Below are positions 33,337 through 52,407 of a DNA stretch of 64,000 nucleotides, piece by piece; position 1 is the stretch's first letter; every line of letters starts with the position of its first letter. The translations under genes were made by a program, and so were the position numbers. The notes under the pieces are model-generated. The model searched no databases. It saw only the letters and a list, made by a program, of their open reading frames with translations, and was not told where the DNA came from. Source of the DNA: an uncultured Rivularia sp. GTDB lineage: Bacteria > Cyanobacteriota > Cyanobacteriia > Cyanobacteriales > Nostocaceae. The stretch covers positions 1,984,001-2,048,000 of the forward strand of contig OY762007.1 of assembly GCA_963665115.1 (NCBI GenBank), written 5' to 3'.

Positions 33337-34301
33337 AGGCATTTGTTATGCATCCAGATTAACCAAATATATATAAATGATATCTAAGCAACTTGATATT
33401 AGCTTGATAACTGTATTCATTTATAAACAAGATTAATTATTATACACCATATAAAAAATAATTAATGTATTCTAAACATCCTATTTAAATATTGTAATTT
33501 GCAGCCTTTGTCTAATCAGAACTGCTTTTATAATCGTTTATATTCACGAGGATGTTTGTTTTTTGATCAACTGTATACATTTATTCAAAAGTAATTTCTA
33601 TAATATATGTAGCATAAATAAAAGTAATGCATGAGAATATTGTCAGAAAAGCATCCAATACTTAAATCAAAAAACTGACAATTATTGCTTTTATTACTTT
33701 ATCAAGACATAAATCTATCAAAAGTTAGATTTCAAATATTTCTATAGTGCATTGCTTCCTTGAAAGCAAGATTATAAAAATCTATTTGAAACAAATTATC
33801 AAGATACTGTATAATTACTGACAAGAATGTAAATAGTTTTCTCAACAGTTAAAAAAAATATGTGTCGCAAGCTTCTTCCAAGACTTGCTATCTGTTGAGA
33901 AGAGTATTTATACGTTTAATGTCAAGATATTATAAAGTTAATATCAAGATATTGTGAAGTACTAAGTAAAGGTATTGTTACCTGGTCGCAAGCATTGTTA
34001 ACATTTCGATATGTAAAAAAAAATACAAAGGGAGGAGCAATTATTTAAGGTCTGCTAAAGTACAGTTGAACATAGTTAATGTTTTGTTAACTCTGATGAG
34101 AGAAATATCGGTTCTCCTCATTATGCTTAAACAGCTTTAATGGTATTCAGACCTAACTATAGTTTTCACTTTGCTTTAAATTAAAATTATGCATTTGAGA
34201 TGATTTACAAAGTTCCAAACTTTGTATGTTTGCATCTTTATTGAAAATTTGATGCGTAATCATTTAGTCAATGTATTTTTGTATTCTTAATTGCATTTTA
34301 A

Positions 34302-34419
34302 GACAATCAATTTACGTTTTCATTCTTGAGTTGGGCTTTGACGGTCTAGTGGATCTCAGTCCCTCTGAAACTGTCTTGTATTAATGCTGTAAGTTGATTA
34401 TTACAGCAGTAATGAGGGT
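34302..34419 (+). promoter_or_regulatory. Structured leader motif, copy 1
   Basis: GACAATC-N17-TTGAG then hairpin GGGCTTTGACGGTCTAGTGGATCTCAGTCC (34333-34362) and second stem TGCTGTAA/TTACAGCA. Confidence 0.6.
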
Positions 34420-34929
34420 ATGATTTTAAATAGATATCCGTAGTGATGAAATCCAAGCGTAGTATATTTACGATCTCAAATGAAAACGGCAATAAAGAAT
34501 ATTATTAATTGGCATTGCTAAAAGAGATTGAGGCTTATTTGATTTGAAAATATTGCAAAATTGATAATTTATATTTCATGCATTTATCACGAATAAATTG
34601 CTTGCAAAGAAATATACAGATACTGTATGATTACTGTAAATAATTTTTTTTGGGATTATAAAGAAGCACCAAAAAACTAAATTGGTACATACAAAAATTA
34701 GGAAGGGAAGCTTATGTCTTATGACTGAGATTAGGTATAGATTACCATTTTTTGAATACTAATTCAATTGCATTTATCTGTACTATTAATGAAATTGAGA
34801 TGCTTGATTAATTTTAAGATAGGAGCAGTAAAATCTTGAACGGAAGAACAGTTTTAGTTTGGTAAATCCCTCGAGAAGAAGGCACTTAGCAAATAAATAT
34901 CTTAAGCTGCGTTCGGGATAGTCAAATAT

Positions 34930-35036
34930 GACAATCGAAACATTGCATTAATTTTGAGCGGGAATGGGGCTTCGATGGTCTAATGGATCTCAGCCCTTTC
35001 GCGAGCCTTTGCTGTATTTTTGCGAGCAGAAAAGGT
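34930..35036 (+). promoter_or_regulatory. Structured leader motif, copy 2
   Basis: GACAATC-N17-TTGAG then hairpin GGGCTTCGATGGTCTAATGGATCTCAGCCC (34967-34996) and second stem CCTTTGCT...AGCAGAAAAGG. Confidence 0.6.
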
Positions 35037-35207
35037 TGAATAATATCTTCTGTATGGAGTATAAATTATAAAATTGCGTGCATCTGCTTTCCGTCTGAGT
35101 AAAAAGTTAAGTTAGGCGTATTCCTTAACTTAAGTGTAAGAAGCCTGCCTAGTTGGAATTTATTCAAATGCAGCTTCTTTAAAGACGTATAGTTATCGGA
35201 TGAAAGT

Positions 35208-35660
35208 ATGTGTATGAAAGATTTTAAATTGCTTAAAAGATGCGATCGCAATCGAAAGCGTTCTAAGAGAAGGGCTATATACTGCCCCGTTCATGGGTGC
35301 TATTTACACAGCGTCAGCCAAAAATATAGATTATTTTCTTCCTGCCCCAGACAACTTCAACAAAAAGGAATAGGACGACAGAATGCCAAAATATTGATAG
35401 CAAGTCAAACCGCAGTAGTTTTAGAAGATGAATGGTTAGAAGCATTTTGGTGCGATGAATGTCAGCAAACAAAATGGTATAGAGTTGAAAAGCTTGGTAA
35501 AAATTCGGACAAAAATGCTGGTCAAACTTCATATTCGATCTCTTTAGCACCAACTCAATTATGGGAACAAGCTATAGGAGTAGATGAAGCCAGAGGTAAT
35601 CCCAGTGTTAGCGAATTTACTCGCAGACATGCACGAATGGCGAGCTATGAAAATCTCTGA
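35208..35660 (+). CDS. Uncharacterised basic Cys/His (putative Zn-binding) protein heading the EPS cluster
   Basis: RNRKRSKRR, CPVH, EWLEAFWCDEC, LWEQ, GNPSVSEFTRR. Confidence 0.8.
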   Translation: MCMKDFKLLKRCDRNRKRSKRRAIYCPVHGCYLHSVSQKYRLFSSCPRQLQQKGIGRQNAKILIASQTAVVLEDEWLEAFWCDECQQTKWYRVEKLGKNSDKNAGQTSYSISLAPTQLWEQAIGVDEARGNPSVSEFTRRHARMASYENL

Positions 35661-35860: not shown

Positions 35861-37374
35861 TTGAACAGGAATCCGTTTGTAAAGTTAAAAAACGGGAAAA
35901 TAGTTAGCGTTGAACATCCAACAACAGCTTCTTTTAACGAAACCCCAGCTAACACGAAAAAAAGGCAAGTAGTGCCCAAAGTGTCAGGAATATTTTATAT
36001 ACTTACCTTGATATTAGTGAATGCGGGTATTTGGAGTGGAGCTTTAATGTATTTAGCTACAGCCAAACCAAAATATATCAGTGAATGGGCAGTTAACATT
36101 CCTGGTAGTGGTTCAACCTCTAATATCAACCTTCCCGATATTGGACAAGCAACATCCCAAAACTATTCAGCTTATGCCGGAGCAAATTACGATCCTAGAG
36201 AAAACTATAAGGCGATCGCCACCAGCGATCAAGTATTAAAAGCTGCCGCTAGAATCGTGAATATGCCACCAAAAAAGTTTGGCAAGCCGCGAGTTAAAAC
36301 AGTTGACAATACATCCTTAATGAGGTTTGAGCTTAAAGGTTCCAATCCTCAAATAGCAAGAAGAAAATCTATAGCTTTACAGAATACATTTGAAGCTAAA
36401 TTAGAGCAGTTAAGAAACGAAGAAATAGCTCAGCAAAGAGTACGCTTAGAAAATGGGATGGAAGCGTCGCGGCGAAATTTAAAAACTGCTCAAAGACGGC
36501 TTAGTAATTTTAAAGCTGCTTCGGGTTTAAATTCCGAAGAACAACTGAAAAGTATGGCAATTAATATCGAAGAGTTACGCAGACAGCGTAGCGAACTAGC
36601 AGCCCAACAGCAACAGTCCCCCAGGCTCAGGTTTCGGAATTATCCGATAATCTAAGTTTGTCTTCCAACCAAGCTTCCAATGCTTTTGTTTTGCAAGCCG
36701 ATCAACTTTTTCAGAATTATTTGAAAAGTTATAGCGAAGCCAATAGCGATTTAATCAAAGCCAGCGCCAAATTAACTAAGATCCATCCAACGGTTATTAA
36801 CCTCCAAACAGAGCAGCAAGCAGCCCAAATTGCTCTTTTGGACAGAGCGCAAGCCCTTTTGAACCGTCCGATAAGTATGTCGTTAGTTAATAGACTTAAC
36901 TTCAGTAATAATGAATCGTCTGGTTCTAAACGCGCTATTCTGTCAGAGCAATTGGTGACAACAAACGTCGCAAAGCAAGGAATAAAGGCTCAAGTGAATT
37001 CTTTAGACTCACTAATTCCTCAGCTAGAAGATAGGTTAAAAAAATTATCGCAGCAGCAGTCCATCATGGAGGACATAAGACGAGACGTACAGGTTGCCGA
37101 AGCAGTATTTTCATCAACTATTGCAAAATTAGACTTGGCAAAAACCAGCGTTTCTTCTTCTTATCCAGAAATTCAGATTCTTGCCACACCCAGTTTACCA
37201 GAAGAGGCATCCGGACCGAGAACAACCTTGGTTTTGCTAGGTGCAACATTAGGCTCTTTATTCTTTAGTAGTGGAATTATTGGATTATGGAGAGCTAAAC
37301 TGCAACAGCAAAAACAAGAAAAACACCTTCAAGAATATATAGAATACCCGGAATTTGTAGAAGATCATTACTAA
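35861..37374 (+). CDS. GumC/Wzc-like polysaccharide co-polymerase without kinase domain (frameshift at 36618-36622)
   Basis: N-terminal TM, PKYISEW, long coiled coil, HPTVINLQ, YPEIQILATPSLP, C-terminal TM. Confidence 0.85.
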
Positions 37375-37377
37375 AGC

Positions 37378-38638
37378 ATGAAACCCCAAAACTTTGAAGA
37401 AAGTTTAATTTGGTACGTACTTATCGGCACCTATGGTATCTACGCATTAGGATTAGTGTTTCCCGTTTATTCGGCATTGGCATGGGTATTAAGTGGATAT
37501 TTAGTTTTTAAAATTTTGCTGCAAACTAAAAAAACTCCACCCGAAGAAAGAATTCGTATTCCGTGGATAACATGGCTGTGGGGAATTTGTTCGCTAATTA
37601 CTTTAGTGGCAACTTATGCCGGTATTACAGATTTTAATTTGGGAAGAACTGCTCTTTTAAGAGCCATTTTAGGTTGGTTGATGAGTACGGCAGTCATACC
37701 CTTGTTTCTCCTCTGCGGCTGCTTAAATATCAGACCAAAACTTATTTATCGAGCGGTATGTATATTATGCTTGCAAAGTTTAATCGCAATTCCGATTGCT
37801 TATGCAGCCTATGCCGCAAATCTACCAGGTATTCTTTATACATCTCCCATTGAAAGATTGATTCAAAATGGACCGATTTTTTATAACGTCGGATTTTACA
37901 CGTCAGATTATGGCATTGATAACGTTCGTTTGTTTTTGTTTACTCCCTGGTGTCCGGCTTTAGGGTCTTGTTAGCAATGTGTTCTTTTTTATGGTGCTGC
38001 AAGAGTCAAATAAAAAATGGAGATACATTGGCATAGTTGGCGCGATCGCGATGAATATTGTATCCCTTTCACGAGCCGCTGTTGTTTGTCTACCACTAGT
38101 ACTAATTATTATTTGGGGTTTGAAAAACTTTACTAATCCGAAGATGCAAATTGCTGCTGGAATTGCTAGTTTCATTGCCGGGATTTTTAGTACCTCACTG
38201 ACAAATGCTGCTACAGATTTTGTCGATACATTCTACAGTTCGAGAGCCGATTCTTCAAGAGTTCGGGCTGCTTTACAAAGAGTAGGAATAGAGGGTTGGA
38301 AAGAATCTCCTATCTGGGGTCATGGAACTCAAAAACCTGGGCCACCAGTGCTGGCAAATTTACCAATTGGTTCTCATCATACCTGGGTAGGACTCTTGTA
38401 TACGAAAGGATTAGTTGGCTTCATGGCTTTACTAATACCTGTGTTATGGAGTTTTATTGAATTAGTTCTCAAGGCTCGTCATAGTAAACTTGCCGAAACA
38501 TCTTTGAGCATTTTACTTGTACTTCTGATATTCTCTTTTGGAGAACAAATAGATGTTTTAGGGTATATTTGTTGGCCTGGTTTAATAACTATGGGAATTG
38601 CCTTCAAACAAAAATTTTCTCATCCTATTTCCGCTTAG
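37378..38638 (+). CDS. O-antigen ligase/Wzy-like polymerase (frameshift at 37963-37965)
   Basis: MKPQNFEE, multiple TMs, RLFLFTPW-PALG-LV, SLSRAA, PIWGHG, GSHHTW. Confidence 0.85.
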
Positions 38639-38894
38639 TATTGTTTCCTAAGAAGGTTTACAGCTTGCATCTATCTACTTTTAACGCTCTAAAATAACTC
38701 ACAGATAACCGTATTCTAAATACCGTAGACTCAACAAAAAATAGTATCCCTGTTTGACCGTTAAAAAATATATTTCCATCGGTCATTTTTGACTATTATG
38801 GTTCTTAAGTATTCTCTAATTAAAGTAATAAAATTAAATGCTATCCCGCTCGTTCTACTCAATATTAAATAAATACAGAAATATCTAAAAATAG

Positions 38895-40193
38895 ATGATA
38901 ATTGAAAAGATTAGGCAACAGTTGTCAAACCAATTCATTCGTAATATTGGTTGGCTTGGAGGTGCCGAATTAATAAATCGTGTATTCCGTTTAGGAGCAA
39001 CAGTAGTGCTAGCCCGCGCTCTGAGTCCCCAAGACTACGGATTAGCGGCAGTTGTTTTAACTATAAATGAATTTACAACAGTTTTTACCCTCAGAGCCGG
39101 AATTGGGGGCAAAATTGTTCAAGCTGATGAAGAAGATGTAGAAGTCTTTTGCAATACAGCCTACTGGTTAAATTGGATTTTATGCATTTCATTATTTTTA
39201 ATTCAATGCATTGCGGCTTTTCCTATTGCATGGTTTTATAACGAAGAAAAACTAATATTACCACTTTGCGTATACAGTTTAGTCTACTTAATGTTACCGT
39301 TTTTCGCCGTTCATAATGCATTGATAGATAGAGCCAATAGACTAAAAATCACGGCAATAAGTACGGCAATTCAGTCAATGTTGAATAACATTCTTATTCC
39401 AGCATTGGCGCTTTCGGGTATGGGTATGTGGGCTTTAGTATTACCTGGGCTTTTTACAACTCCAGTATGGATAGTAGTTACCCATCTTAATGAACCTTGG
39501 CGACCTAAAATGTCTTTTACTCTTAAAAGATGGAAAGAAATAGTTTATTTTGGGAAAGACATACTCGGTTATGAATTATTAGAAAAATTCCGGTCAAATA
39601 TTGACTATTTATTAGTGGGAAGAATTCTGGGAGTTGAAGCTTTAGGAATTTACTTTTTTGCATTTAATGCTGGTTTAGGTATCAGTCTAAATGTTATAAA
39701 TATCATGGTTTGGCCGCTTTACCCTCATCTTTGTGCTGCCAGAAATAACTTTGATGAATTTAAACACAAATATTTTCACAGTCTCAAAACCATCGGCTTG
39801 GTGATAATTCCTTTAGTTATTCTTCAGTCGAGTTTAGCTCCATTTTACGTACCGATTGTTTTTGGTGAAAAGTGGACAATGGCTGTGCCCATATTGGTAA
39901 TAATTTGCCTTTCTGCTTTACCCCGCCCTTTCGGTACAGCAGCGGCTTTATTACTACAATCTCTAGATAAAGCTTGGATTAATTTGCGCTGGAGCGTACT
40001 ATTTACTGCAATATTTCTTACTTCATTATTAATTGGTATGAATTGGGGAATTTATGGAGTAGCAGTATCCGTATTAGTTTCTCACGCAATCGCAATGCCA
40101 ATGTTTACCGTTTGGGCAACAAAATTTGTATTCGCCAAGGATTCGGTAGTGTTTAAGCGATCAAAGCGAAAGATCGAGTCTTCTAATCGTTAA
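38895..40193 (+). CDS. Wzx-type polysaccharide flippase
   Basis: LARALSPQDYG, NIDYLLVGRILG-EALGIY, FGEKW; about 12 TMs. Confidence 0.9.
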   Translation: MIIEKIRQQLSNQFIRNIGWLGGAELINRVFRLGATVVLARALSPQDYGLAAVVLTINEFTTVFTLRAGIGGKIVQADEEDVEVFCNTAYWLNWILCISLFLIQCIAAFPIAWFYNEEKLILPLCVYSLVYLMLPFFAVHNALIDRANRLKITAISTAIQSMLNNILIPALALSGMGMWALVLPGLFTTPVWIVVTHLNEPWRPKMSFTLKRWKEIVYFGKDILGYELLEKFRSNIDYLLVGRILGVEALGIYFFAFNAGLGISLNVINIMVWPLYPHLCAARNNFDEFKHKYFHSLKTIGLVIIPLVILQSSLAPFYVPIVFGEKWTMAVPILVIICLSALPRPFGTAAALLLQSLDKAWINLRWSVLFTAIFLTSLLIGMNWGIYGVAVSVLVSHAIAMPMFTVWATKFVFAKDSVVFKRSKRKIESSNR

Positions 40194-40309
40194 AATTGTC
40201 CCTATTCCTAACTCTTATCAAAAAAGGAGATAATAACTTGCACTTGCATTTATAATACGAGCGCACATTTTCTGTTGCCTATTCCCAATTTTCTTTCCCA
40301 ATAAAAATC

Positions 40310-41252
40310 ATGAGTTCAGCATTTACAGTAGTTATGCCAGCTTACAACGCTGCTGCATATCTATCACAAACAATCGAATCAGTCTTAAGTCAAACCTTTA
40401 CTAATTTTGAACTAATAATTATCGATGATGGTTCTACAGATGATACTACTGCGATCGCCGATAAGTACCAAAAAATAGATAATAGAGTAAAAGTTTTATG
40501 TCAATCCAACCAAGGAGTATCGGCAACTCGTAATAAAGGAATTAATCTTTCTAAATCCAAATACATTGCTTTTATTGATGCAGATGATAAATGGTTCCCC
40601 GAAAACTTAAAGTTCCATTTTGAGCATTTGGAAAAAAATCCTCATTTAGGTGTTAGCTATGCAAAAGTAGAATTTTTACATCCAGACGGAAACCATACTG
40701 GAAAAATTGCTAGGGGGACGTTTAACCAAACTACAACCTCAGCATTTGTTGTATGAAAATCCCACGATGACAGTATCAAATATCGTGGTTCGTCGGCAAG
40801 TATTTGAGGAAATCGGCTGCTTTGATTGCACCATGAGCTATTCAGAAGATATGGATTTTCTGTTTCGGGTTGCCTGTAGCCCTTGGGAAATTGAAGGAAT
40901 CGACAAAGTATTATTGGGGTATAGAACAACACACGGAGGACTATCGTCGCAGCTTTACAAAATGGAAGAGGGTTGGGAAACTTTGATGAATAAAGCTAGA
41001 GCAAAGGCACCCGAGCTAATCGATCAACATTATAGTAAAGCTAGAAGCAATCATCTGCGATACCTTGCCCGTAGAGCTTTCCGCTTGCGTCTTTCCCCTA
41101 AGATTGGAGTTAATTTTTTAAATCGGGCATTAAGCTCAGATTGGCGATTAGTAATAAGAGAACCAGGGACAACTCTGGTTACAATCGTAGCAGTTTATGG
41201 GGCTCAGATTCTAGAATATGTAAACTTACGTAAATTTTCTCCATCAGTGTAA
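40310..41252 (+). CDS. Glycosyltransferase family 2 (frameshift at 40713-40717)
   Basis: VVMPAYN, IDDGSTD, FIDADD, SEDMDF. Confidence 0.9.
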
Positions 41253-41354
41253 AGATTAGATGAAAGTTTTATTTAATTTACATATGTTTGCTAAATAGCA
41301 GATTTCATAAAGTATCATTTATTACTGGAGGCATCTTGTAGAAAATGAACTAAC

Positions 41355-42359
41355 ATGAAAATATGCTATTTGATTCAGACTTATAAGAATCCAGAACAAA
41401 TATACAGACTTGTCAAATTAATTAAGAATACAACTTCCAATTCATTTATAGTTGTTAGTCATAATTTTAATAGCTGTAATTTAAATATCAGCTTATTCAA
41501 AAAACTAAAGAATGTTGAAGTAATTCCTAATAATGGAGTGATGATGGGTAGCTTCGGCATTATCCAAGGTTTTTTTGATGCTATTGGTTGGCTATTAAAT
41601 CAAAAGATTCAATTTGACTGGCTAATTAATTTAACAGGTCAAGATTACCCCACCCAACCTCTTTGCAAAGTTGAAAATCTTTTAGCGAATACAAACTATG
41701 ATGGTTTTGTAGAGTATTATGACGTTTATTCCAAGCAAAGTCCCTGGAGTAAAAAAGTAGTAAATACCAGATATTTATACAGTTATAAACATTTTAAAGA
41801 ATACTTATCGCCTCGGCAAAAGTATATGTTAAGACCGATTAAATATATAGTTAACAATTGCCAGCCTTTTGTTCGACTAGATTATTCTTATGGATTGATA
41901 GTTGGATTTAAAAACTTCTATAAATTCTTCGACAAAGATTTTATTTGCTATGGGGGTTCTTATTTTAGTACAATTTCTCAAAAATGCGCGATTTATCTGT
42001 ATGAGTTTGTTCGAGAAAATACCCAAATTATGGACTATTACAAAAAAACTTTTATTCCGGAAGAGTCTTTATTACAAACCATTTTAGTGAATAGTAAACA
42101 ATTCAAATTGTACAACAATAATTTTCGCTATACTGATTTTGCTAGTAGCCGTCACGGACATCCACGCATACTAACTAGCAAAGATTTCCCGGCGTTAACA
42201 CAAGATAATATTTATTTTGCTCGTAAGTTTGATATGAATGTAGACAGCACAATCTTAGATAAACTCGATCGCAGAACACTTACAGATAAAGTGATTGATA
42301 TACCTCCGACTAAATTTAGAATTGAGGAGAATAATTTCATACAATCAATCAAACAATAA
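41355..42359 (+). CDS. Core-2/I-branching (GT14-like) glycosyltransferase
   Basis: ICYLIQTYKNPEQ, LTGQDYP, GGSYF, PEESLLQT, FARKFD. Confidence 0.88.
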   Translation: MKICYLIQTYKNPEQIYRLVKLIKNTTSNSFIVVSHNFNSCNLNISLFKKLKNVEVIPNNGVMMGSFGIIQGFFDAIGWLLNQKIQFDWLINLTGQDYPTQPLCKVENLLANTNYDGFVEYYDVYSKQSPWSKKVVNTRYLYSYKHFKEYLSPRQKYMLRPIKYIVNNCQPFVRLDYSYGLIVGFKNFYKFFDKDFICYGGSYFSTISQKCAIYLYEFVRENTQIMDYYKKTFIPEESLLQTILVNSKQFKLYNNNFRYTDFASSRHGHPRILTSKDFPALTQDNIYFARKFDMNVDSTILDKLDRRTLTDKVIDIPPTKFRIEENNFIQSIKQ

Positions 42360-42393
42360 TATTTGATTTGTCACCGTTAATTATAATTAAAAT

Positions 42394-42425
42394 AGCCCCC
42401 TTTATTACGAAGTAATGGGGGTTTT
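42394..42425 (+). terminator. Intrinsic-terminator-like hairpin inside the EPS cluster
   Basis: AGCCCCC-TTTATTAC-GAA-GTAAT-GGGGGTTTT. Confidence 0.6.
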
Positions 42426-42623
42426 GAAGTCTCTATTCAAAAATCCAGGAATACTTAATTCTTGGGAACATTCCAATTTTGCAAAAAGTCCTCAGATTAT
42501 AAGCGTGGGGTAAAATATTTGTTCAGAATTGGGATACTCGCTAATTATTTTTTAATTATTATCGATGATATTTCCGTTACAATTAGCTATAAAACATTTA
42601 CAACTAATAATGGAAGTAAAAAA

Positions 42624-43556
42624 ATGAAACCTTGTTATTTGATTATGAGCCATAAAGATCCAGAACAAATCTATCGGCTTGTCTACACTATCAAAAAGCT
42701 TAGCCCCAATTCTCATATTCTATTAAGTCATGATTCGACAAATTGTAGCTTAGATGTATCAACTTTTAAAAAATTATCTGGAGTTGATGTCCAATTTGCG
42801 ACAGCAGAAAGAGCAGATTTTTCTCTAATTAACAAGTATTTTTGGGCTATTAATTACTTATTCAGTAATAATATAGATTTTGATTGGTTGATAACTCTTT
42901 CTGCCCAAGATTATCCAACTCAGCCCCTTTCAGAACTTGAGTTTTTGCTATCTACCACGGAATACGATGGCTTTTTAGAATTTTTCAAAGTTTTTAGTCC
43001 AGAAAGTGCGTGGAGTATTAAGGATGGCTCTCAGAGATATTTGTATAAATATAAAAAGCTGCTTTCATCTATACCTAAACCAATCAGAACAATACTGAAG
43101 GTACTCAAAGTTTTTAATTATTCACAACCTTTTTTCAGACTTGATTTTTCATATGGTTTGAGGCTTGGTATTAAACAGAAGTCTATATTTAATGATAATT
43201 TCAATTGTTATGGAGGTTCATTCTTTTCTATTTTATCTATGAAATGCGTGAAATACTTGAATGATTTTTATCAAAATAATCGTCAGATAGTTGAATATTA
43301 TAAATATGTTTTAGTCTCTGATGAAAGTTTTCTCCAAACTGTTTTAGTTAATAGCAATCAATTTAATCTACACAATGAATGCAAACACTATTATGATTTT
43401 TCTGATACTAGCTACGGGCATCCAGCAATATTAACAGAAAAAGATCATCATGCCATGATCCAAAAAAAATATTATTTTGCTCGCAAATTTGATATTAAGC
43501 TAGATAGCAATATTTTAGATATTTTAGACCAAGAATTTTTACTAAAAGTTAACTAA
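42624..43556 (+). CDS. Second core-2/I-branching (GT14-like) glycosyltransferase, paralog of the previous gene
   Basis: MKPCYLIMSHKDPEQ, LSAQDYP, GGSFF, DESFLQT, FARKFD. Confidence 0.88.
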   Translation: MKPCYLIMSHKDPEQIYRLVYTIKKLSPNSHILLSHDSTNCSLDVSTFKKLSGVDVQFATAERADFSLINKYFWAINYLFSNNIDFDWLITLSAQDYPTQPLSELEFLLSTTEYDGFLEFFKVFSPESAWSIKDGSQRYLYKYKKLLSSIPKPIRTILKVLKVFNYSQPFFRLDFSYGLRLGIKQKSIFNDNFNCYGGSFFSILSMKCVKYLNDFYQNNRQIVEYYKYVLVSDESFLQTVLVNSNQFNLHNECKHYYDFSDTSYGHPAILTEKDHHAMIQKKYYFARKFDIKLDSNILDILDQEFLLKVN

Positions 43557-43715
43557 TATTTTTTAGTTCGCTTTGTAAATTTGTTAGATTTATTTTTTCT
43601 CTGTTCCCTATTTCCATATCCAGTCTTTGCTCTTTTTCAACTATTTAATTAGCATATTAGTAAGAAAATAAACTTTATTCCATAGTTAATAATTAATCAT
43701 TAGGTCAAGATTATA

Positions 43716-44690
43716 ATGCCAAAAGTATCAGTTATCGTACCAGCTTACAACGGTCAAAGTACAATTTTAGAAACAATTAATTCTGTTTTACAGCAAAGTT
43801 TTACAGACTTTGAATTAATTGTAATCAATGATGGTTCTACCGATGGCACTTTGGAACTGTTATCAAATATAAAAGATGCCAGATTAAAAGTTTATTCTTA
43901 TAAGAATGGAGGTTTACCAGCAGCCCGAAATCGCGGTATAGTTCGTGCCACGGGAGAATTTTTATCTTTTATAGACGCTGATGATTTATGGACACCTGAT
44001 AAATTAGAGTTGCAACTTCAGGCTTTACAACAAAATCCTCAAGCAGGAGTTGCTTACAGTTGGACGATTTGTATGGGAAATAATGGAAATTTATTTCACC
44101 CCGGTGTATCTGAAAGTTTTCAAGGTAATGTTTACCCCGATTTACTAGTAGGTAACTTTATTGGCAGTGGATCGAATGTTTTAGTTCGTAGAGAAGCAAT
44201 TGAATCGGTAGGCTATTTTGATGAGAGCTTGAAGTCATGCGAAGACTGGGATTACTGGTTGCGATTAGCACCGAAATGGGAGTTCGCAGTTGTTCCTAAA
44301 CCTCAAATTATTTATCGATTATCTTCGGGGGCTATGTCAAGCAAGCTCGATGTGATGGAAAAATATCAAACTTTGGTTTTAGAAAGAGCTTTTGCATCGG
44401 CACCTTTAGAACTTCAGCCTTTAAAGAATCGAGGTTTTGCTTATATTTATTTATTTATGACACGACTTTACTTGAGTCGGGCTAATGATGCAAAAGTTGT
44501 TAAACAAGCCACTCAAAAATTATGGAAAGCTATTCGTTTTTCCCCGAAAATATTATTAAGTAAAGAGGCTCAGCTTTTATCAATTAAACTAATCATATTA
44601 CGAATACTTTCTCCAAAAATTGCTTCTAGGTTTTTAAACAGAAGTGTTACTGTTCGTAACGTTGCCGATCCCAGGTTACAAACTAGCTAA
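43716..44690 (+). CDS. Glycosyltransferase family 2
   Basis: VSVIVPAYN, INDGSTD, FIDADD, CEDWDYW. Confidence 0.93.
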   Translation: MPKVSVIVPAYNGQSTILETINSVLQQSFTDFELIVINDGSTDGTLELLSNIKDARLKVYSYKNGGLPAARNRGIVRATGEFLSFIDADDLWTPDKLELQLQALQQNPQAGVAYSWTICMGNNGNLFHPGVSESFQGNVYPDLLVGNFIGSGSNVLVRREAIESVGYFDESLKSCEDWDYWLRLAPKWEFAVVPKPQIIYRLSSGAMSSKLDVMEKYQTLVLERAFASAPLELQPLKNRGFAYIYLFMTRLYLSRANDAKVVKQATQKLWKAIRFSPKILLSKEAQLLSIKLIILRILSPKIASRFLNRSVTVRNVADPRLQTS

Positions 44691-45007
44691 TTTATAAATT
44701 TAAAGTTATGAGTTAAGAGTTAAGAGCAAAATGTATTTAGAAGTAAATTGCTTTTTTCTCTGACTAGAGTCAAATACAGTCCTTTATAAACTTAAATGGC
44801 AAAATGCATGAAACATTTTAATAAGCGAACTGTACTCTATTGAATTTACCTCAATTCCTAACATGATTTATTGATATTGCTTCTTCTAGCAATCCCATTT
44901 TTTTTCTACTGTCTCTCTAAAAACTAAAGATATTTAATCGAACTAAATTCTGTTAGTATTTGAATTACTACCAGTTTTTTTTGTGCCATTACATCTATCA
45001 AACCACT

Positions 45008-46058
45008 ATGAATCATCAACAAATGAACAAAAAAGTATCGGTGATTATTCCGCTGTATAATGCAGAGAAATATATCGGCAGAACCCTACAATCTGTTTTA
45101 AATCAAACATATGAGAATCTAGAAATTATCATTGTCGATGATGAATCACCCGATCGCAGCGTTAAAATTTGCGAGCAGTTTAGTGACTCCAGAATTAAAA
45201 TTTTACATCAAAAAAATCGAGGCTTACCTGGTTCTAGAAATACGGGTATCCGTCATGCTAGCGGCGATTATATCGCATTTATAGATGCCGATGATATTTG
45301 GTTGCCAGAAAAGTTAGCAAAGCATATCGCTCATTTGGAAAGTCATCCAGATGTGGGAGTAAGTTTTAGTCGTTCTGCTTTTATCGATGAAACAGATAGA
45401 CCCTTTAGGTATTTATCAAATTACTAAGCTTCAAGATATTACTCCTCTCGATATTCTTTGTCGCAGTCCAATTGGAAATGGTTCTGCTGCGGTTTTCAGA
45501 AAAGCTGTTTTTGAAGATATCAAGTTTCAAAAGAATCTTTATGGTTATGTAGAAGATTATTATTTTGACGATACTTTTACGCTCTCTGAAGATATTGAAT
45601 GTTGGATCAGAATCGCGATTCAAACTAACTGGAAATTTGCAGGTATTGCTCAACCATTAACTCTTTACAGAATTAATTCTAATGGTCTCTCAGCTAATCT
45701 TCAGCAGATGATTAACTATAGAGAACAGGTTTTTGAAAAAGCTTCCTCTTATGCTCCAGAACAAATGGCGCGTTGGTTAAAACCTGCAAGAGCTTATCAT
45801 TTAAGGTACGTTGCAAGAAGGGCTATAACTATTAATAAAGGAATTTTTGCGTTGAAACTTATGTGCCGTTCGATTGTGAATTACTGGCCAATTATTATAG
45901 AAGATTTTCAGCGTACCTTTGAAACTATTGCTGCTGCTATTTTACTTTGCGTTGTACCGAAGCCTGTATACGAGAAAGTTAAATTGTTCGCTTTGAAGAT
46001 AATCGGAAATTTGCAACAGAAAAGTATTAATAAAGATAAATTGAGTGAAGCATCATAA
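45008..46058 (+). CDS. Glycosyltransferase family 2 (frameshift at ~45401-45403)
   Basis: VSVIIPLYN, VDDESPD, FIDADD, PIGNGS, SEDIECW. Confidence 0.9.
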
Positions 46059-46092
46059 AAAAAAGTGATCTTATAAAGTCTATAGATGTGAG

Positions 46093-46488
46093 ATGGCTGC
46101 TAGTTTTTACCTGCAAAAATCGCCCGTTGCTTATCGAAATTACCAATCAACCAATATGCAAACTAAACTTCTAAGCCCTAGATGTACGGTGGTAGAACCT
46201 CAAAATTCAATTACAGCCGCAAACGCTTATTTGTTTGAAAGAAAACTAGCTACAGCATTAAGAAAAAACTCTCATTCCAAATTATTAGTCGATCTAAAAC
46301 AAGTGGAACATATAGATAGTGCTGGGTTGATGGCATTAATATCTAGCTGCAAATTAGCTCAAAGTTTACAAACACGCTTTAGCCTTTGCTCAGTTTCCCC
46401 TTCCTTAAAAATTGTCATTGAACTAACTCAGCTCGATCGCGTATTAGAGATATTTGAGTCTAAAGCCAAATATACAGAATCGCTGTAG
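46093..46488 (+). CDS. STAS-domain anti-sigma-factor antagonist
   Basis: LLVDLKQVEHIDSAGLMAL, ELTQLDRVLEI. Confidence 0.9.
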   Translation: MAASFYLQKSPVAYRNYQSTNMQTKLLSPRCTVVEPQNSITAANAYLFERKLATALRKNSHSKLLVDLKQVEHIDSAGLMALISSCKLAQSLQTRFSLCSVSPSLKIVIELTQLDRVLEIFESKAKYTESL

Positions 46489-46512
46489 TACAGATATCTA
46501 GCTATTTAAAAA

Positions 46513-48673
46513 ATGCGTTTTTTCAATCTACTTAATCGTCGTCAGCAGCGAATATTTGGCATCGCCTTTATCGTACTAGCTACATTTTTTGTTTCGTTTT
46601 CCTTTAATTCCAATCAAGCTGTTCGCAATATATCCCAACAAATTACTGTAGCCAAAGCTCGTTCTCAACAGTATCCTTCTTTAGGTACTGCGAATGTTGC
46701 CATCGGTGGGGGAGGTTATGTAACTGGAATTTACCTTCATCCAAAAGAGCGTAATTTAGTTTATATAAAAACCGATATTGGTGGTTTTTATCGGTGGAAT
46801 CCCGCGAATTCAACTTGGATACCGCTTAACGAACAGTTTTCCTTGGCTAATAGCAACTACTACGGAGGAGAAGCTTTAGCGCTTGACCCTAAAGACCCTA
46901 ATATTGTATACATTGCTGTAGGGAAATATACTGCCGATTGGTGGCAGTCTCAAGGAACAATTCTCAAATCTTTAGATAGAGGCAGAACTTGGACTAAGCT
47001 AAATCTGGATTTGAAGATGGGTGGCAACGAATCACAAAGATGGACTGGTGAAAGATTAGCGGTTAATCCTTTCAACTCTAAAAATCTATTTTTTGGTTCT
47101 CGTCAAGATGGGTTGTGGAAGTCAGACAATGGTGGCCAAAGTTGGGCTAAAGTCAAATCATTTCCCATACTCAATGACGATATTGGCATCAACGCTATTA
47201 CTTTTGATAGATACAAAAAAGGCACTATCTATGGATTAGCTCATAAAAATGGAATATATAAATCGATTGATACGGGTAAAACGTGGAATAAAATTTCACA
47301 AAGTCTTGCCGAAGTCAACCGTATCGCCATAGGAAATGAGGATACTTTATATGTAACTCATGCCGGGGGTGTTAGTAAATTTGTTAACGGTAGTTGGAAA
47401 GATATTACCCCTCAACAAAACAAATTAGCTTTTAATGCTGTTAGCGTTAATCCTAAAAATAGGGAAGATGTTATGGTTGCTACCTATAGTGACTCATATA
47501 CACAGATATTCCATTCTTTTGATGGTGGAAGTAAATGGACTCAGCAGAAACGGCAAGCCAATAATACAGTTTCGTGGTGGTCTGACTATATGAAGTCAAA
47601 ACCTTCCGTAGCCAGTATCGAATTTGACCCTTGGAATGCAAGTAGGGTTTGGTTAACAGACTGGTATGGGATATGGCGAACTGATAATATCAATCGCAAT
47701 CCAGTTGTGTGGACAAATTATCAACGGGGACATGAAGAGATTGTCACCTTTACGTTGGTTGCAACACCCTCGGGAGCATTAATCAGCGGTTTAGCAGATG
47801 TTGAAGGATTTTACCATGACCGGGGACTAAATGCTTATCCGTCGAAAATGTTGAGTAGCAAACCTCATGATTTTCAAGACACTTACAGCATTGCTTACAG
47901 CCAAAAAAGTCCTTTAAAAATGGTGCGAGTGGGGGGGAATCGTCATAACAATACTTATAGCGGCGCAACTTCTAGCGATGGTGGAAAAACTTGGGAGAAG
48001 TTTTCCAGTTTTCCCAAGAATCAATTGGCGACGCGAGTAGCCATGTCTGCAACCGATCCCAATTTATTTGTTGTTACCCTCAGCGGTACTCAACCTCTGC
48101 GAACAACGGATGGCGGTGCTTCTTGGCTTCCGGTTTCTGGTTTACCCAATGGATTTGAGGGAAATTGGAATTGGACGCAACCTTTAGTAGCAGACAAAGT
48201 TGACGGCAATACGTTTTACTATTACGCCGATGGAAAAGTTTATCGCAGCAGTAACGGTGGTAAATCTTTTGAAGTCGTTTCTGAATCGTTACCCCATGCA
48301 GATTGGCACTCTTTAAAAACTGTTTCAGGAGTTAAAGGTGAATTATGGCTGAGTCTGGACGATCGAGGGACTTTACCGCTCAACCGATGGAGGAAATAAT
48401 TTTACCCGAATTAAAGGAGTAAATAGAGCATATTTGATTGCATTAGGCAAGCCTAAAACTGGAAATAAAGGTAATGCATTATATCTATATGGAGAAATTG
48501 CTAACCAAGGAAAAGGTATATTTCGTTCTTTAAATAATGGACAAATTTGGCAGCGAATAGGCGATAAAAACAAACCTATCGGTAACGATCCAAACGTAAT
48601 GGAAGCTAGTTCCACAGAGTTTGGTTTAGTTTTTATTGGCACCAACGGTAGAGGCATTTACTACGGTAAATAG
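46513..48673 (+). CDS. Exported BNR/Asp-box beta-propeller protein, GH74 xyloglucanase-like (frameshift at 48367-48369)
   Basis: IGGGGYVTGI, TDIGGFYRW, GERLAVNP, repeated S.D.G.TW boxes, ends FIGTNGRGIYYG. Confidence 0.85.
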
Positions 48674-48713
48674 TTGAATAATTTAGAACTCTAGATAATT
48701 TTAATAAAAAACA

Positions 48714-49523
48714 ATGACTACAAATAACGTCTGCATCCACCAATTTGATGAAGTCGAATTACTTGGCACTAAGTTTCATAAAGTCAGAGTCCAAGAATTA
48801 ATTAATTTTATTGTTAGCTCAGCAGGTATTGATAAAAAAACCCTAGTCGGGAATGTCAACGTTCGAGCAATGAATTTTGCTTGCGAAATGCCTTGGTACA
48901 AAGATTTTATTAACAGATCGGATTTAGTCTTTTGCGATGGATTTGGCGTATTATTAGGTGCCAAAATGTGCGGTTGTGGGATAAATTCGGAACATCGTAT
49001 GACTTGCCCCGACTACATAGAAAACTTGGCTTCCGCTTGCGAACGAGAGAATGTTTCGCTGTATTTGCTTGCAGGTAAGCCTGGTGTTGTCGATAAAGCA
49101 ATTGAGAAGTTGCAAGTTATTGCACCCAAATTAAATGTAAAAGGACATCATGGTTACTTTCATAAATCTGGCATAGAAAATGAATACGTTGTTAATGAAA
49201 TTAATCAGTTTAAGCCAGATGTATTATATGTTGGCTTCGGAATGCCATTGCAAGAACGTTGGATAATTGATAATTTTGACCGAATTGATGCAAAAGTGTT
49301 TCTACCTTTGGGTGCTTGCTTAGACTTTTATACGGGTGCAGTATATCGTGGTCCCCGCTGGATGACTAATCGCGGACTTGAATGGTTATCCCGAATATTT
49401 ACCGAACCAAAAAGATTGTGGCAACGTTACGTTATAGGTAATCCGCTGTTTTTCTACCGTCTTCTCAAAGAACGCTTCGTAAAACTTTTTAAGAAGGGCA
49501 GTAAAGCGTCTTCAACATATTAA
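48714..49523 (+). CDS. WecB/TagA/CpsF family glycosyltransferase
   Basis: FCDGFG, HHGYF, VGFGMPLQERWI, GLEWLSR.FTEPKRLWQRY. Confidence 0.93.
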   Translation: MTTNNVCIHQFDEVELLGTKFHKVRVQELINFIVSSAGIDKKTLVGNVNVRAMNFACEMPWYKDFINRSDLVFCDGFGVLLGAKMCGCGINSEHRMTCPDYIENLASACERENVSLYLLAGKPGVVDKAIEKLQVIAPKLNVKGHHGYFHKSGIENEYVVNEINQFKPDVLYVGFGMPLQERWIIDNFDRIDAKVFLPLGACLDFYTGAVYRGPRWMTNRGLEWLSRIFTEPKRLWQRYVIGNPLFFYRLLKERFVKLFKKGSKASSTY

Positions 49524-49824
49524 GATAGATTGCATTTTTTTATCAAATTAACTCGATCGCTTTTAGTTAATTTGATATTAAATCTATTAACCGAAGAAAA
49601 TGTTTTATTTTACTTTTGAAGCAAAATAAAAAATAGCAAAACATCGATACAATACGGGTATTTATCAAAGCTTAAAAAATATTAAAATTTGGAAATAACT
49701 TTTTGATATTTTTCAAATAGCTATATGCAAATCTTGTCAGTGAATGAAGCAAGATTTAATATCCCTGAATTTAGCAATTTATAACAATCATGCGAACAGT
49801 GTTTATAGAGGTGTAATACTAATT

Positions 49825-51252
49825 ATGGCTTATCGTTCTCTACCAGGAGTAAATTTTCGACCTGACTTAAGATCGGCTAAAGGTGCAAACTTAAGAAAAG
49901 GAATTACAATCAGATTCCTTCGAGTTGTAACTCTTGTTTCATCAGATGTAATTGCTCTAAGTTTAGCGTGGACTTTAGCAATAAATTTCGGCACGTTTTT
50001 AGAATCAGCTTGGACGAAAAAGCCTTCATTTATCCTACTAATCCTGATAGTTGGCATTGGTATGATTGCAACTAAGGGTTTATATTTGCCCGGTATTTAT
50101 CGTCGTAATTATGCTGCGTTAATAAAAGCCGTTACCCTTTCAGAAATTTTATTACTATTAATTGCTTTCCTGTACGAACCAGATGGTTACGTTTCCCGGT
50201 CTAGCTTTTTAATATTTTGGCTACTATCGGTAACTTTTACCTGCACGGGACGCTTGATATTTGATTTTTCAACTAAACTATTGCGTAAAAAAGGGGCAAT
50301 TCGCTATCCCATTTTTGTGATTACCGATCCAGACGACAGAGACGATTATATCAAGTTTATTCAGAAGGAAAATTGTTATACTCTCGAAGGTATTGCTGAC
50401 TCAGAAAGTCTGGATAGAGAGAATAGAGAAGCAACCTTTGATTTTCTAAAACAACAAGGTATAGTTGAGACTTTTGTTTCTTGGAATGCAATTAAGAATC
50501 GCCTATATATTTGCTGGCATTTCCAAACTGCTGGTATTACTTTACGAATTTTGCCAACAACCGATCGCATTTATCATCCCAAATCAACACTTTGGAAAAT
50601 TGGTAATATTCCTTGTTTAACAATTCCCGCACCAATTATTGCAGGTAGCGACTTTTGGATTAAACGGTGTTTCGACCTTTGTTGTTCGATTATTTTATTA
50701 ATGCTGTTTTCACCTTTATATCTGTTAATTTCTTTACTTATTAAATTAGATTCTCCCGGTCCAATATTTTTTAGACAAGAGCGAATTGGTTTACACTGTA
50801 AGAAATTTAAAATTTGGAAATTCCGCACGATGGTAACGAATGCGGAAAAATTACAGGCAAACTTGGAAGCTAAAAATGAAATAAAAGATGGGGTTCTGTT
50901 TAAAATGAAAGATGACCCCCGGATTACAAAAATTGGTAAGTTTCTACGTCTTTACAGCTTGGATGAATTACCTCAATTATTCAATGTGTTATTAGGTGAT
51001 ATGAGTTTAGTTGGTCCTCGCCCTCTTCCTGTAAGAGATGTTGAAAAATTTCTAACACCGCACTTTATTCGACAAGAAGTTTTACCAGGCATTACAGGTT
51101 TGTGGCAAGTTTCAGGTCGTTCTAACATCGAAAAATTTGAAGATGCAGTCAAATTAGATATTAGTTACATTGAGAACTGGTCTATCCTTTTGGATATGAG
51201 AATTTTACTGCAAACAGTACGAGTTGTTTTGCAAAAAACGGGTGCTTATTAA
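49825..51252 (+). CDS. Priming (polyprenyl-phosphate) sugar transferase
   Basis: KRCFD, KFRTM, DDPRIT, SLDELPQLFNVL.GDMSLVGPRP, PGITGLWQVSGR; AGAGG RBS before ATG 49825. Confidence 0.95.
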   Translation: MAYRSLPGVNFRPDLRSAKGANLRKGITIRFLRVVTLVSSDVIALSLAWTLAINFGTFLESAWTKKPSFILLILIVGIGMIATKGLYLPGIYRRNYAALIKAVTLSEILLLLIAFLYEPDGYVSRSSFLIFWLLSVTFTCTGRLIFDFSTKLLRKKGAIRYPIFVITDPDDRDDYIKFIQKENCYTLEGIADSESLDRENREATFDFLKQQGIVETFVSWNAIKNRLYICWHFQTAGITLRILPTTDRIYHPKSTLWKIGNIPCLTIPAPIIAGSDFWIKRCFDLCCSIILLMLFSPLYLLISLLIKLDSPGPIFFRQERIGLHCKKFKIWKFRTMVTNAEKLQANLEAKNEIKDGVLFKMKDDPRITKIGKFLRLYSLDELPQLFNVLLGDMSLVGPRPLPVRDVEKFLTPHFIRQEVLPGITGLWQVSGRSNIEKFEDAVKLDISYIENWSILLDMRILLQTVRVVLQKTGAY

Positions 51253-51690
51253 TAAGTCATATTTCCATCGGGGAGAGAGTTTTGATCTTAATTACTACTC
51301 CCCGTAACAAATGAAGGCGAAAAAACTTTTTAGTATAGCTTGCGACATTTAATTTTGTGCTATATGATTTAGATATAAAATATTAACTAATTCACAAATT
51401 TATCATTATATTTTTGTTGATATCAAACAAGGGCTTTTGTATTAATTATTATTTGACGGAATAAAAATAATGGTTTTAATGTTTATCTATGAATATTTAT
51501 AAATTATTTATATTTTTTCTTCATAATGGAAAATAATTGGATAGTATATAAAAAAATCAATAATAATGAATAATTTCTATATATATCTATTTACTTATCG
51601 ATAAAAATTAAATATTTAAATTTTGTTATATAAGTCTATTTTTTCAATAGACCTACATGATAATTGACTTGAGTTATAAGGGTCATCAGG

Positions 51691-52407
51691 ATGATAAAAA
51701 GTAATAGCTTCAGTAGAATATCTTTAAAAGAAAGATTGCTCACTACCATTTTCGGTGGTATTCCGAATCTTTTTTTAGGTAAAAAATTAAGGAATTTGGT
51801 ATATCGAAGCCTTTTGAATCGGATAGGTAAATCTGTTAATATTCAACATTTTGTAGAGCTTATTGGAACTCCTTGGATTGAAATTGGTAATCAGGTAAGT
51901 CTTTTGAAAGGAGTGCAAATTAATGCTTTAGGGCATCCAAATAATAAGGTACATATAAAAGATCGAGCTAGATTAGAACGCGGTGTAGATATTCGCTCGC
52001 TGCACGATACACATATAATAATTGACGAAAATGCATATATCGGTCCCTATGTCACTATTAGCGGTACGGGAGATATAAAAATTGGTAAAAACTGCTTAAT
52101 TGCACCACATTGTGGAATATTCGCGAACAATCATATTTTTACAGATCCGACTCGAACTATTGAAGAACAAGGTACAACTCGTCAGGGAATTGTAATTGAA
52201 GATGACTGTTGGTTAGGGCATAACGTTACGGTATTAGATGGAGTGATTATTGGAAAAGGAAGTATTATTGGTGCGGGTTCCGTTGTTAATAAGAGCATTC
52301 CTCCCTTTTCTATCGCAGTAGGTACACCAGCAAGAATTATTAGAAATCGTCTTGATAGAGAAACACCAAACTTCTCATCACAACTATCATCAAAAATTCC
52401 AACCTAG
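51691..52407 (+). CDS. Hexapeptide-repeat acyltransferase
   Basis: IVIEDDCWLG, IGKGSIIGAGSVV, VGTPARII. Confidence 0.92.
   Translation: MIKSNSFSRISLKERLLTTIFGGIPNLFLGKKLRNLVYRSLLNRIGKSVNIQHFVELIGTPWIEIGNQVSLLKGVQINALGHPNNKVHIKDRARLERGVDIRSLHDTHIIIDENAYIGPYVTISGTGDIKIGKNCLIAPHCGIFANNHIFTDPTRTIEEQGTTRQGIVIEDDCWLGHNVTVLDGVIIGKGSIIGAGSVVNKSIPPFSIAVGTPARIIRNRLDRETPNFSSQLSSKIPT

Follow-up and report, generated by a model that had tools for sequence, protein, structure and literature searches.

Comparative evidence for a cognate RNA hairpin and alr5224-family protein heading polysaccharide clusters in cyanobacteria

A bulged RNA hairpin and a small protein of the family of Nostoc PCC 7120 alr5224 probably form a cognate pair at cyanobacterial polysaccharide clusters, a conclusion that is well supported by comparative data. 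The pair was studied in a window of 64,000 nt from an uncultured Rivularia sp. (contig OY762007.1), where two copies of the hairpin and the protein gene precede a Wzy-type polysaccharide cluster (Table 1). The initial annotation had proposed a cis-RNA and protein module at this position, and covariation, co-occurrence, gene context and a second cognate pair all argue for such a module. With somewhat better than even confidence, we propose that the protein is a non-NusG RNA-binding factor that would promote elongation of polysaccharide operons, with translational autoregulation on top. Dedicated control of elongation is a requirement of polysaccharide operons in proteobacteria, Bacteroides and Bacillus; the literature that we searched yielded no description of such control in cyanobacteria.

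The leader ahead of the protein gene is 1947 nt long with a GC content of 29.8%, compared with 56.7% for each of the 30-nt hairpin copies, in agreement with the AT-rich leader of ∼1.9 kb and GC-rich copies described initially. Both copies were recovered where they had been placed (cores in Table 1) and have an identical predicted fold; they differ at position 7 (in a 2-nt bulge), position 10 (a 1-nt bulge), position 17 (the loop) and position 28, where a G-U pair becomes G-C. Folding of each copy alone is modestly better than that of shuffled sequences (z −0.9 and −2.0), and the case for the hairpin therefore rests on covariation. A search of the 8.69-Mb genome that allowed up to 8 mismatches gave no copies beyond these two, nhmmer gave the same result, and we therefore rejected the possibility that the hairpin is a dispersed repeat. 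Two flanking elements of the initial annotation had to be revised. The sequence GACAATC-N17-TTGAG does precede both copies, but the distance to the hairpin, said to be the same, is 2 nt in one case and 8 nt in the other; it was found in just these two copies among 85 aligned and was rejected as part of the element. A second stem, P2, had been built on TGCTGTA...AGCAG, whereas the conserved part is the base of the stem, RCCTT...RGGT. The hairpin itself (P1) is prolonged outward beyond the 30-mer by 3–4 further covarying pairs.

A 43-nt repeat (77%) at 33786–33828 and 34602–34644 carries promoter-like hexamers, one set before each hairpin, which suggests a duplicated promoter-plus-leader module. 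Candidate promoter A matches the hexamers at 11/12 positions, in a scan that yields no more sites than shuffled sequence, and RNA-library contigs of relatives start near 33922. Candidate promoter B is also visible in the loci of relatives L001, L008, L012, L016 and L019. Metatranscriptome contigs of a relative, from one mat sample, cover both hairpins in one piece at depths of 64, 26 and 10, compared with 2–10 at the end of aspS; because DNA carry-over is uncontrolled, these contigs were not counted as evidence of transcription, and gaps in their coverage carry no weight either. A 22-nt tandem repeat with TCAAGATA at 33908–33951, of which a third copy lies near 33800, is a possible regulator site, and a block GCGTGCATCTRCTTTCCG...GTAAAAAGTTA at 35080–35110, between hairpin 2 and the gene, is kept in close relatives.

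Table 1. Coordinates of leader elements, protein gene and polysaccharide cluster in the window
Feature	Position	Strand	Basis or remark
Putative sigma70-like promoter A, TTGAAA-18-TATAAT	33786..33815	+	∼520 nt upstream of hairpin 1
Type I bulged hairpin P1, copy 1	34328..34365 (core 34333–34362)	+	model match, 62.7 bits
Second stem P2, copy 1	34372..34419	+	fold; base motif
Putative sigma70-like promoter B, TTGCAA-18-TATGAT	34602..34631	+	ahead of hairpin 2
Type I bulged hairpin P1, copy 2	34958..35002 (core 34967–34996)	+	model match, 52.9 bits
Second stem P2, copy 2	35004..35037	+	fold
alr5224-family protein, 150 aa	35208..35660	+	ORF; start may be ATG 35214
Arg-rich motif R14–R22	35247..35273	+	predicted helix 10–19
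Predicted zinc site C26, H29, C82, C85	35283..35462	+	conservation; putative zinc ligands
Co-directional Wzy-type polysaccharide cluster	35861..52407	+	ORFs, Pfam/NCBIfam

Among 78 homolog loci, the type I hairpin was found within 9 mismatches in 50, always on the coding strand, and its pairing was analysed in a MAFFT alignment of 54 copies and in a model-fitted set of 85 copies. In the MAFFT alignment 95.8% of cells are paired, 6 of the 15 pairs are compensatory, and there are 15 compensatory cells vs 5.0 in shuffles, a count that 0/500 shuffles reach. The relatedness of the copies inflates this shuffle control, but slid registers drop to 36–55% paired. The model-fitted set has 49 cells vs 8.0. 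Upstream of homologs, then, the hairpin is neither absent nor devoid of covariation. Its core is nearly invariant: the bulged U, the G, the A and the partner U are each present in 85/85 copies, the G-C pair above the bulged U in 84/85 and the A-U pair in 85/85, with a variable base right after the U. All bulges lie on the 5′ strand, and the loop is variable and up to ∼18 nt long. The P2 base motif RCCWY..RWGGY occurs in 58/85 copies, and two patterns together detect a second stem in 66/85. P2 as a terminator was rejected, since in type I it has no U tract and its folding is ordinary compared with shuffles (median z −0.4).

As to Rfam, no covariance model matched the leader, apart from a chance mcrA match elsewhere in it (E 0.85), and none matched in the loci of five relatives. 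We conclude that both 30-nt sequences represent a conserved hairpin with covariation and no Rfam match. No description of the motif was found in the literature searched, which lay largely outside subscription journals, and neither the gene nor the motif letters gave a match in the supplements of PMC4734099. A 2026 screen of cyanobacterial RNA structures was confined to KEGG-orthology genes, but the hairpin might figure in it next to a gene of sugar metabolism (PMC12873609).

The first gene downstream of the leader encodes, as described initially, a protein with RNRKRSKRR and CPxH...CxxC. It is 60% identical to alr5224, with homology over the full length including CPxH...CxxC. A near-length search returned 1014 homologs, the named ones being cyanobacterial hypothetical proteins, and a profile search gave 129 representatives of 40–217 aa. 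C26, H29, C82 and C85 are invariant in 70/70 alignment rows; within the Arg-rich motif, N15, R16 and R18 are conserved in 63/63 ungapped rows and R22 in 64/64. We infer that alr5224-family proteins would bind both RNA and zinc. The window protein had been called uncharacterised, and searches of Pfam, NCBIfam, PHROG and PDB placed it in no family; a tblastn search of phages was likewise negative. In two predicted structures (pLDDT 72 and 81) the fold is small and rich in beta strands, with a helix at the N-terminus (residues 10–19, pLDDT ∼63 in the first). Foldseek returned no match to them at E ≤ 0.001, and the best structural match of both models (Z 4.8) is to unrelated folds, which does not by itself establish a new fold. 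In the comparison with zinc-ribbon folds (NrdR, TFIIS, Spt4), NrdR scored Z 3.5. The domains that are hallmarks of NusG paralogs, NGN (PF02357) and KOW, are absent from the window protein (Pfam, NCBIfam). The genome has one NusG, its sole PF02357 match, located elsewhere, in line with the initial remark that no NusG paralog is visible. A predicted complex of the window protein with this NusG scored 0.00, which speaks neither for nor against an interaction. In Nostoc PCC 7120, alr5224 was induced 3.3-fold together with alr5223 upon sigJ overexpression, in a table that gives it as hypothetical (PMC2779892). We found no function for alr5224 in the literature searched, subscription journals being largely outside its scope.

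A hairpin model, R1, and a protein query were run on the same genomes, 151 per sample. In the phylum sample, 25 genomes have the hairpin and 32 the protein, and all 25 hairpin genomes carry the protein (25/25). In the sample from the window's own family, made up of Nostoc- and Rivularia-type relatives, the hairpin was found in 137/151 genomes, and 137/137 of these encode a full-length protein. Among the 14 hairpin-less genomes, 11 lack the protein and 3 have weak fragments only. The class sample has 41 genomes with the hairpin, 49 with the protein and 40 with both (40/41 hairpin genomes), the lone match without protein being in G576 (E 3.7e-4). Type I protein is present in G105 and G129, in which no convincing hairpin was found. 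These counts overstate independence, because the genomes are related to one another, the samples share members and the two protein clades represent a single split.

The second clade consists of divergent homologs (HHalign probability 98%) in which CPxC replaces CPxH, the order is swapped to CPxC...Cxx(H/D) and the basic N-terminus is different. The type I hairpin is absent from clade II loci, which have another hairpin in common, RAGAAGACAC-loop-GTGCAC; the outer stem of this type II hairpin covaries in 9/15 pairs, the core being fixed by the search pattern. Among 251 genomes, clade II protein was found in 29 and the exact type II pattern in 19, all within those 29; the pattern occurs in 0 of the remaining 222 genomes, and the reversed control gave 0. 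When 156 protein copies were sorted by neighboring hairpin, 98 are near type I and 15 near type II with no cross-pairing, and 43/156 have no hairpin of either type nearby, in part because some loci are short and the patterns strict (the tree covers 71/156 rows). G074 carries both pairs (L119, L120). At the level of sequence, the two clades show matched specificity and, because they represent one split, not repeated co-evolution. Genomes G502, G516, G533, G572 and G613 have 4–8 family matches each, from both clades, and since several of these members are without either hairpin, further hairpin types may exist. A divergent homolog also occurs in small GC-rich genomes (L124 of G103, and G577), among nucleotide-sugar genes, where no hairpin was found.

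Polysaccharide genes lie downstream of the protein gene in 74/76 informative loci, a figure composed of 73/78 loci assigned by clusters with Pfam-scanned representatives, with L062 added and 2 loci too short; ∼24 of the 78 are close relatives of the window. L053 and L069 have neither hairpin nor polysaccharide context. The window cluster encodes Wzc-like, Wzy_C, flippase, GT2, Branch, STAS, BNR hydrolase and WecG proteins, a priming sugar transferase and a hexapeptide acyltransferase. Several of its genes are split by frameshifts (35861–37374, 37378–38638, 40310–41252, 44960–46058 and 46513–48657); these are likely assembly indels, because a contig from a sequencing run that may be the source has 2 nt fewer near 36618, a difference by which the Wzc-like gene would become continuous.

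The hairpin is not confined to leaders of the protein gene. G071 has 11 hairpins in five places and a single protein gene, itself without a hairpin, and G227 has 12 hairpins and one gene; since a lone gene coexists with so many distant hairpins, the protein would be expected to work in trans. Hairpins without the gene stand in front of flippase, glycosyltransferase, Wzm, nucleotide-sugar dehydratase and heptose-pathway-like genes (L109–L111, L115, L118, L121, L239, L240, L242–L245). Others precede no sugar genes, at L119 (DUF815) and L230 (aldo-keto reductase, E1 dehydrogenase), or are ambiguous (L117, L246). Two loci, L077 and L122, have the hairpin 3′ of the gene, and L076 has a tandem gene copy with its own hairpin.

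The position of P2 relative to the ribosome-binding site bears on the level at which the pair acts. In 59/67 gene-linked copies, P2 pairs a GGAGG-like arm 3–6 nt before a start codon that is TTG in 32, GTG in 25 and ATG in 2, and in 52 of these 59 an alternative P2 partner is available in codons 3–4. This pairing of P2 with the Shine–Dalgarno (SD) sequence, mostly before TTG or GTG, suggests autoregulation. The same pairings would be expected of a purely translational switch, in which the protein binds P1 and remodels P2, so that ribosome access to the following gene is opened or closed and polymerase is not affected. Phage Mu Com is a model for autoregulation or activation by such a switch. 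We consider this explanation unlikely: 32/85 type I copies are at least 85 nt from any start (85–1042 nt from the next start codon), including both window copies at 207 and 841 nt, P2 is retained where the SD is not involved, with compensatory changes (ACCATC/GATGGT, GACTC/GAGTC), and 0/27 type II copies adjoin their gene. Given these start-distant and non-abutting copies, control is not simply translational.

Training on 22 type II copies alone gave a motif, 14–24 nt downstream of the hairpin, with G at positions 1–2, T at 11 and G at 12, a spacing that we take to be that of the consensus pause, with the letters RGR-N7-YG. In 29 gene-distant type I copies it scores 3.61 vs 1.3 in shuffles (0/100), and it is also enriched after gene-linked type I copies (0/100 shuffles), where it overlaps codons. 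In the window's clade it is not enriched, being found in 1/12 copies vs 2.5 in shuffles, with 33/100 shuffles as high. RGR-N7-YG, a pattern chosen together with its search windows partly after seeing the data, occurs in 17/22 type II, 16/29 gene-distant and 39/48 gene-linked type I copies. Terminator-like sites within 300 nt after type I hairpins are not enriched (15/70 vs 13/70 antisense and 20/69 upstream; 17/67 vs 15/67); they are enriched after type II only (13/27 vs 5/27), partly from related loci. For the window cluster, a strict scan gave 8 sites vs 11.7 in shuffles and a loose scan gave 13 sense vs 6 antisense, mostly within genes.

Less likely again than translation only is a role in RNA stability or processing, with the bound protein either protecting the long polysaccharide mRNA at its 5′ end against RNase E/J or marking a processing site. 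Such a role needs no terminators and fits hairpins that lie near predicted 5′ ends (∼55–60 nt below TTGACT-16-TATTAT in G071) and are repeated inside clusters (L109, L110, L114), but it leaves unexplained a pause-like sequence conserved at a fixed downstream distance. A metabolite riboswitch (e.g. for a nucleotide sugar or a cyclic dinucleotide) that controls the gene incidentally would account for the invariant bulged core, the alternative P2 pairings over the SD and the position before biosynthetic operons, and is nevertheless very improbable, as the hairpin is almost always accompanied by the protein, even over long distances, its type switches with the protein clade, its loop is variable and Rfam holds no match. 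Equally improbable is a DNA operator bound by a zinc-ribbon transcription factor, to which a quasi-palindrome near promoters and a likeness to the NrdR zinc ribbon that is within noise (Z 3.5, rmsd 2.8, 44 residues aligned) might point, whereas conserved G-U pairs, one-sided bulges, compensatory changes, loops of up to ∼18 nt and fixed operon orientation fit RNA. Elongation control thus ranks first among these readings, followed by translation, stability and, level with each other, the last two.

For elongation control, the protein would bind the hairpin in nascent RNA, load onto RNA polymerase and promote read-through of the cluster. It is highly probable that the Arg-rich helix would read the invariant bulged core (bulged U and variable Y, followed by G-C and A-U), as in the arginine sandwich of TAR. 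If it does, there is a good chance that polymerase would pause at RGR-N7-YG directly downstream, where the RNA-bound protein would engage the elongation complex and raise processivity. At gene-adjacent copies, P2 would bury the SD before a weak TTG or GTG start and so provide autoregulation, and the two hairpins of the window would serve two tandem promoters.

The layout resembles that of LoaP or UpxY, yet the protein is not a NusG paralog. LoaP requires a leader hairpin, in a leader that has a pause (PMC12691694); at the dfn and mln operons of Bacillus velezensis a small leader hairpin is combined with a downstream pause and one protein serves several long biosynthetic operons, and here a small leader hairpin likewise comes with a downstream pause-like motif and one protein would serve several operons. 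LoaP differs in being a NusG paralog that uses a UNCG loop, compared with no NusG domain and a variable loop here, and type I copies show no evident leader terminator. In Bacteroides, each capsule operon begins with UpxY (PMC11685472), and both UpxY/opsX and RfaH/ops (PMC7819879) share with the present pair a regulator gene that opens polysaccharide operons, cognate cis sites for its paralogs, a leader pause site (here a pause-like motif; ops itself fits the consensus pause) and weak start codons. Unlike these NusG paralogs, which read non-template or upstream DNA, the unrelated protein described here seems to take its specificity from a covarying RNA stem. EAR/epsC RNA (RF01735) and JUMPstart (RF01707) are also cis RNAs or leader motifs at exopolysaccharide operons tied to elongation control (PMC2864571), but the window leader matches no Rfam family and has a dedicated co-occurring protein.

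In HIV TAR and 7SK, a bulged U forms a triple with an A-U pair (PMC6189040), and the type I hairpin has the same arginine-sandwich layout of a bulged pyrimidine followed by G-C and A-U on one strand. Tat likewise combines an Arg-rich stretch with Cys/His residues and acts on elongation, as we propose here. The likeness to Tat/TAR, which works through the eukaryotic P-TEFb pathway, is one of secondary structure only, in type I only, with a hypothetical base triple. Lambda N/boxB also brings together an N-terminal Arg-rich helix and a nascent RNA hairpin. Lambda N, a disordered protein, recognises a GNRA-like loop and depends on boxA together with Nus factors; here the protein is predicted to be folded with a zinc site, the stem is conserved and no phage homolog was found.

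A wider picture, which we regard as possible though somewhat short of even odds, is that cyanobacteria have their own Tat/TAR-like elongation system. In it, a non-NusG family with an Arg-rich helix, a zinc site and no recognised fold would read bulged nascent-RNA hairpins at paused polymerase, would have diversified into orthogonal pairs (up to 8 family matches per genome) that separately turn on polysaccharide and occasionally defence operons, and would rely on a hairpin that can move with its operon between lineages. For work in Nostoc PCC 7120 the pair provides a single gene and an RNA of 40 nt. The pair is a possible lever on exopolysaccharide or slime, biofilm and envelope output, and two orthogonal hairpin–protein pairs would serve as synthetic parts.

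Three further observations concern hairpin-led operons. In G071, a hairpin (L112:2303–10180) heads an operon of SNF2 helicase and Eco57I-type methylase genes in place of sugar genes, likely a defence locus. Near-identical hairpin leaders occur at L240:9980–10100 (G495) and in L110 (G071), genomes of two different families, and both precede nucleotide-sugar dehydratase/aminotransferase clusters, suggesting that the leader moved with the operon by horizontal transfer. Finally, eight hairpin-led clusters (L109, L110, L114, L122, L125, L128, L245 and L246) are dotted with Uma2, DUF29 and PIN genes (Pfam) and with genes that by look are nucleotidyltransferase- and HicB-like, often in tandem arrays and often after AACCAATAA, and look like a cassette-insertion hotspot.
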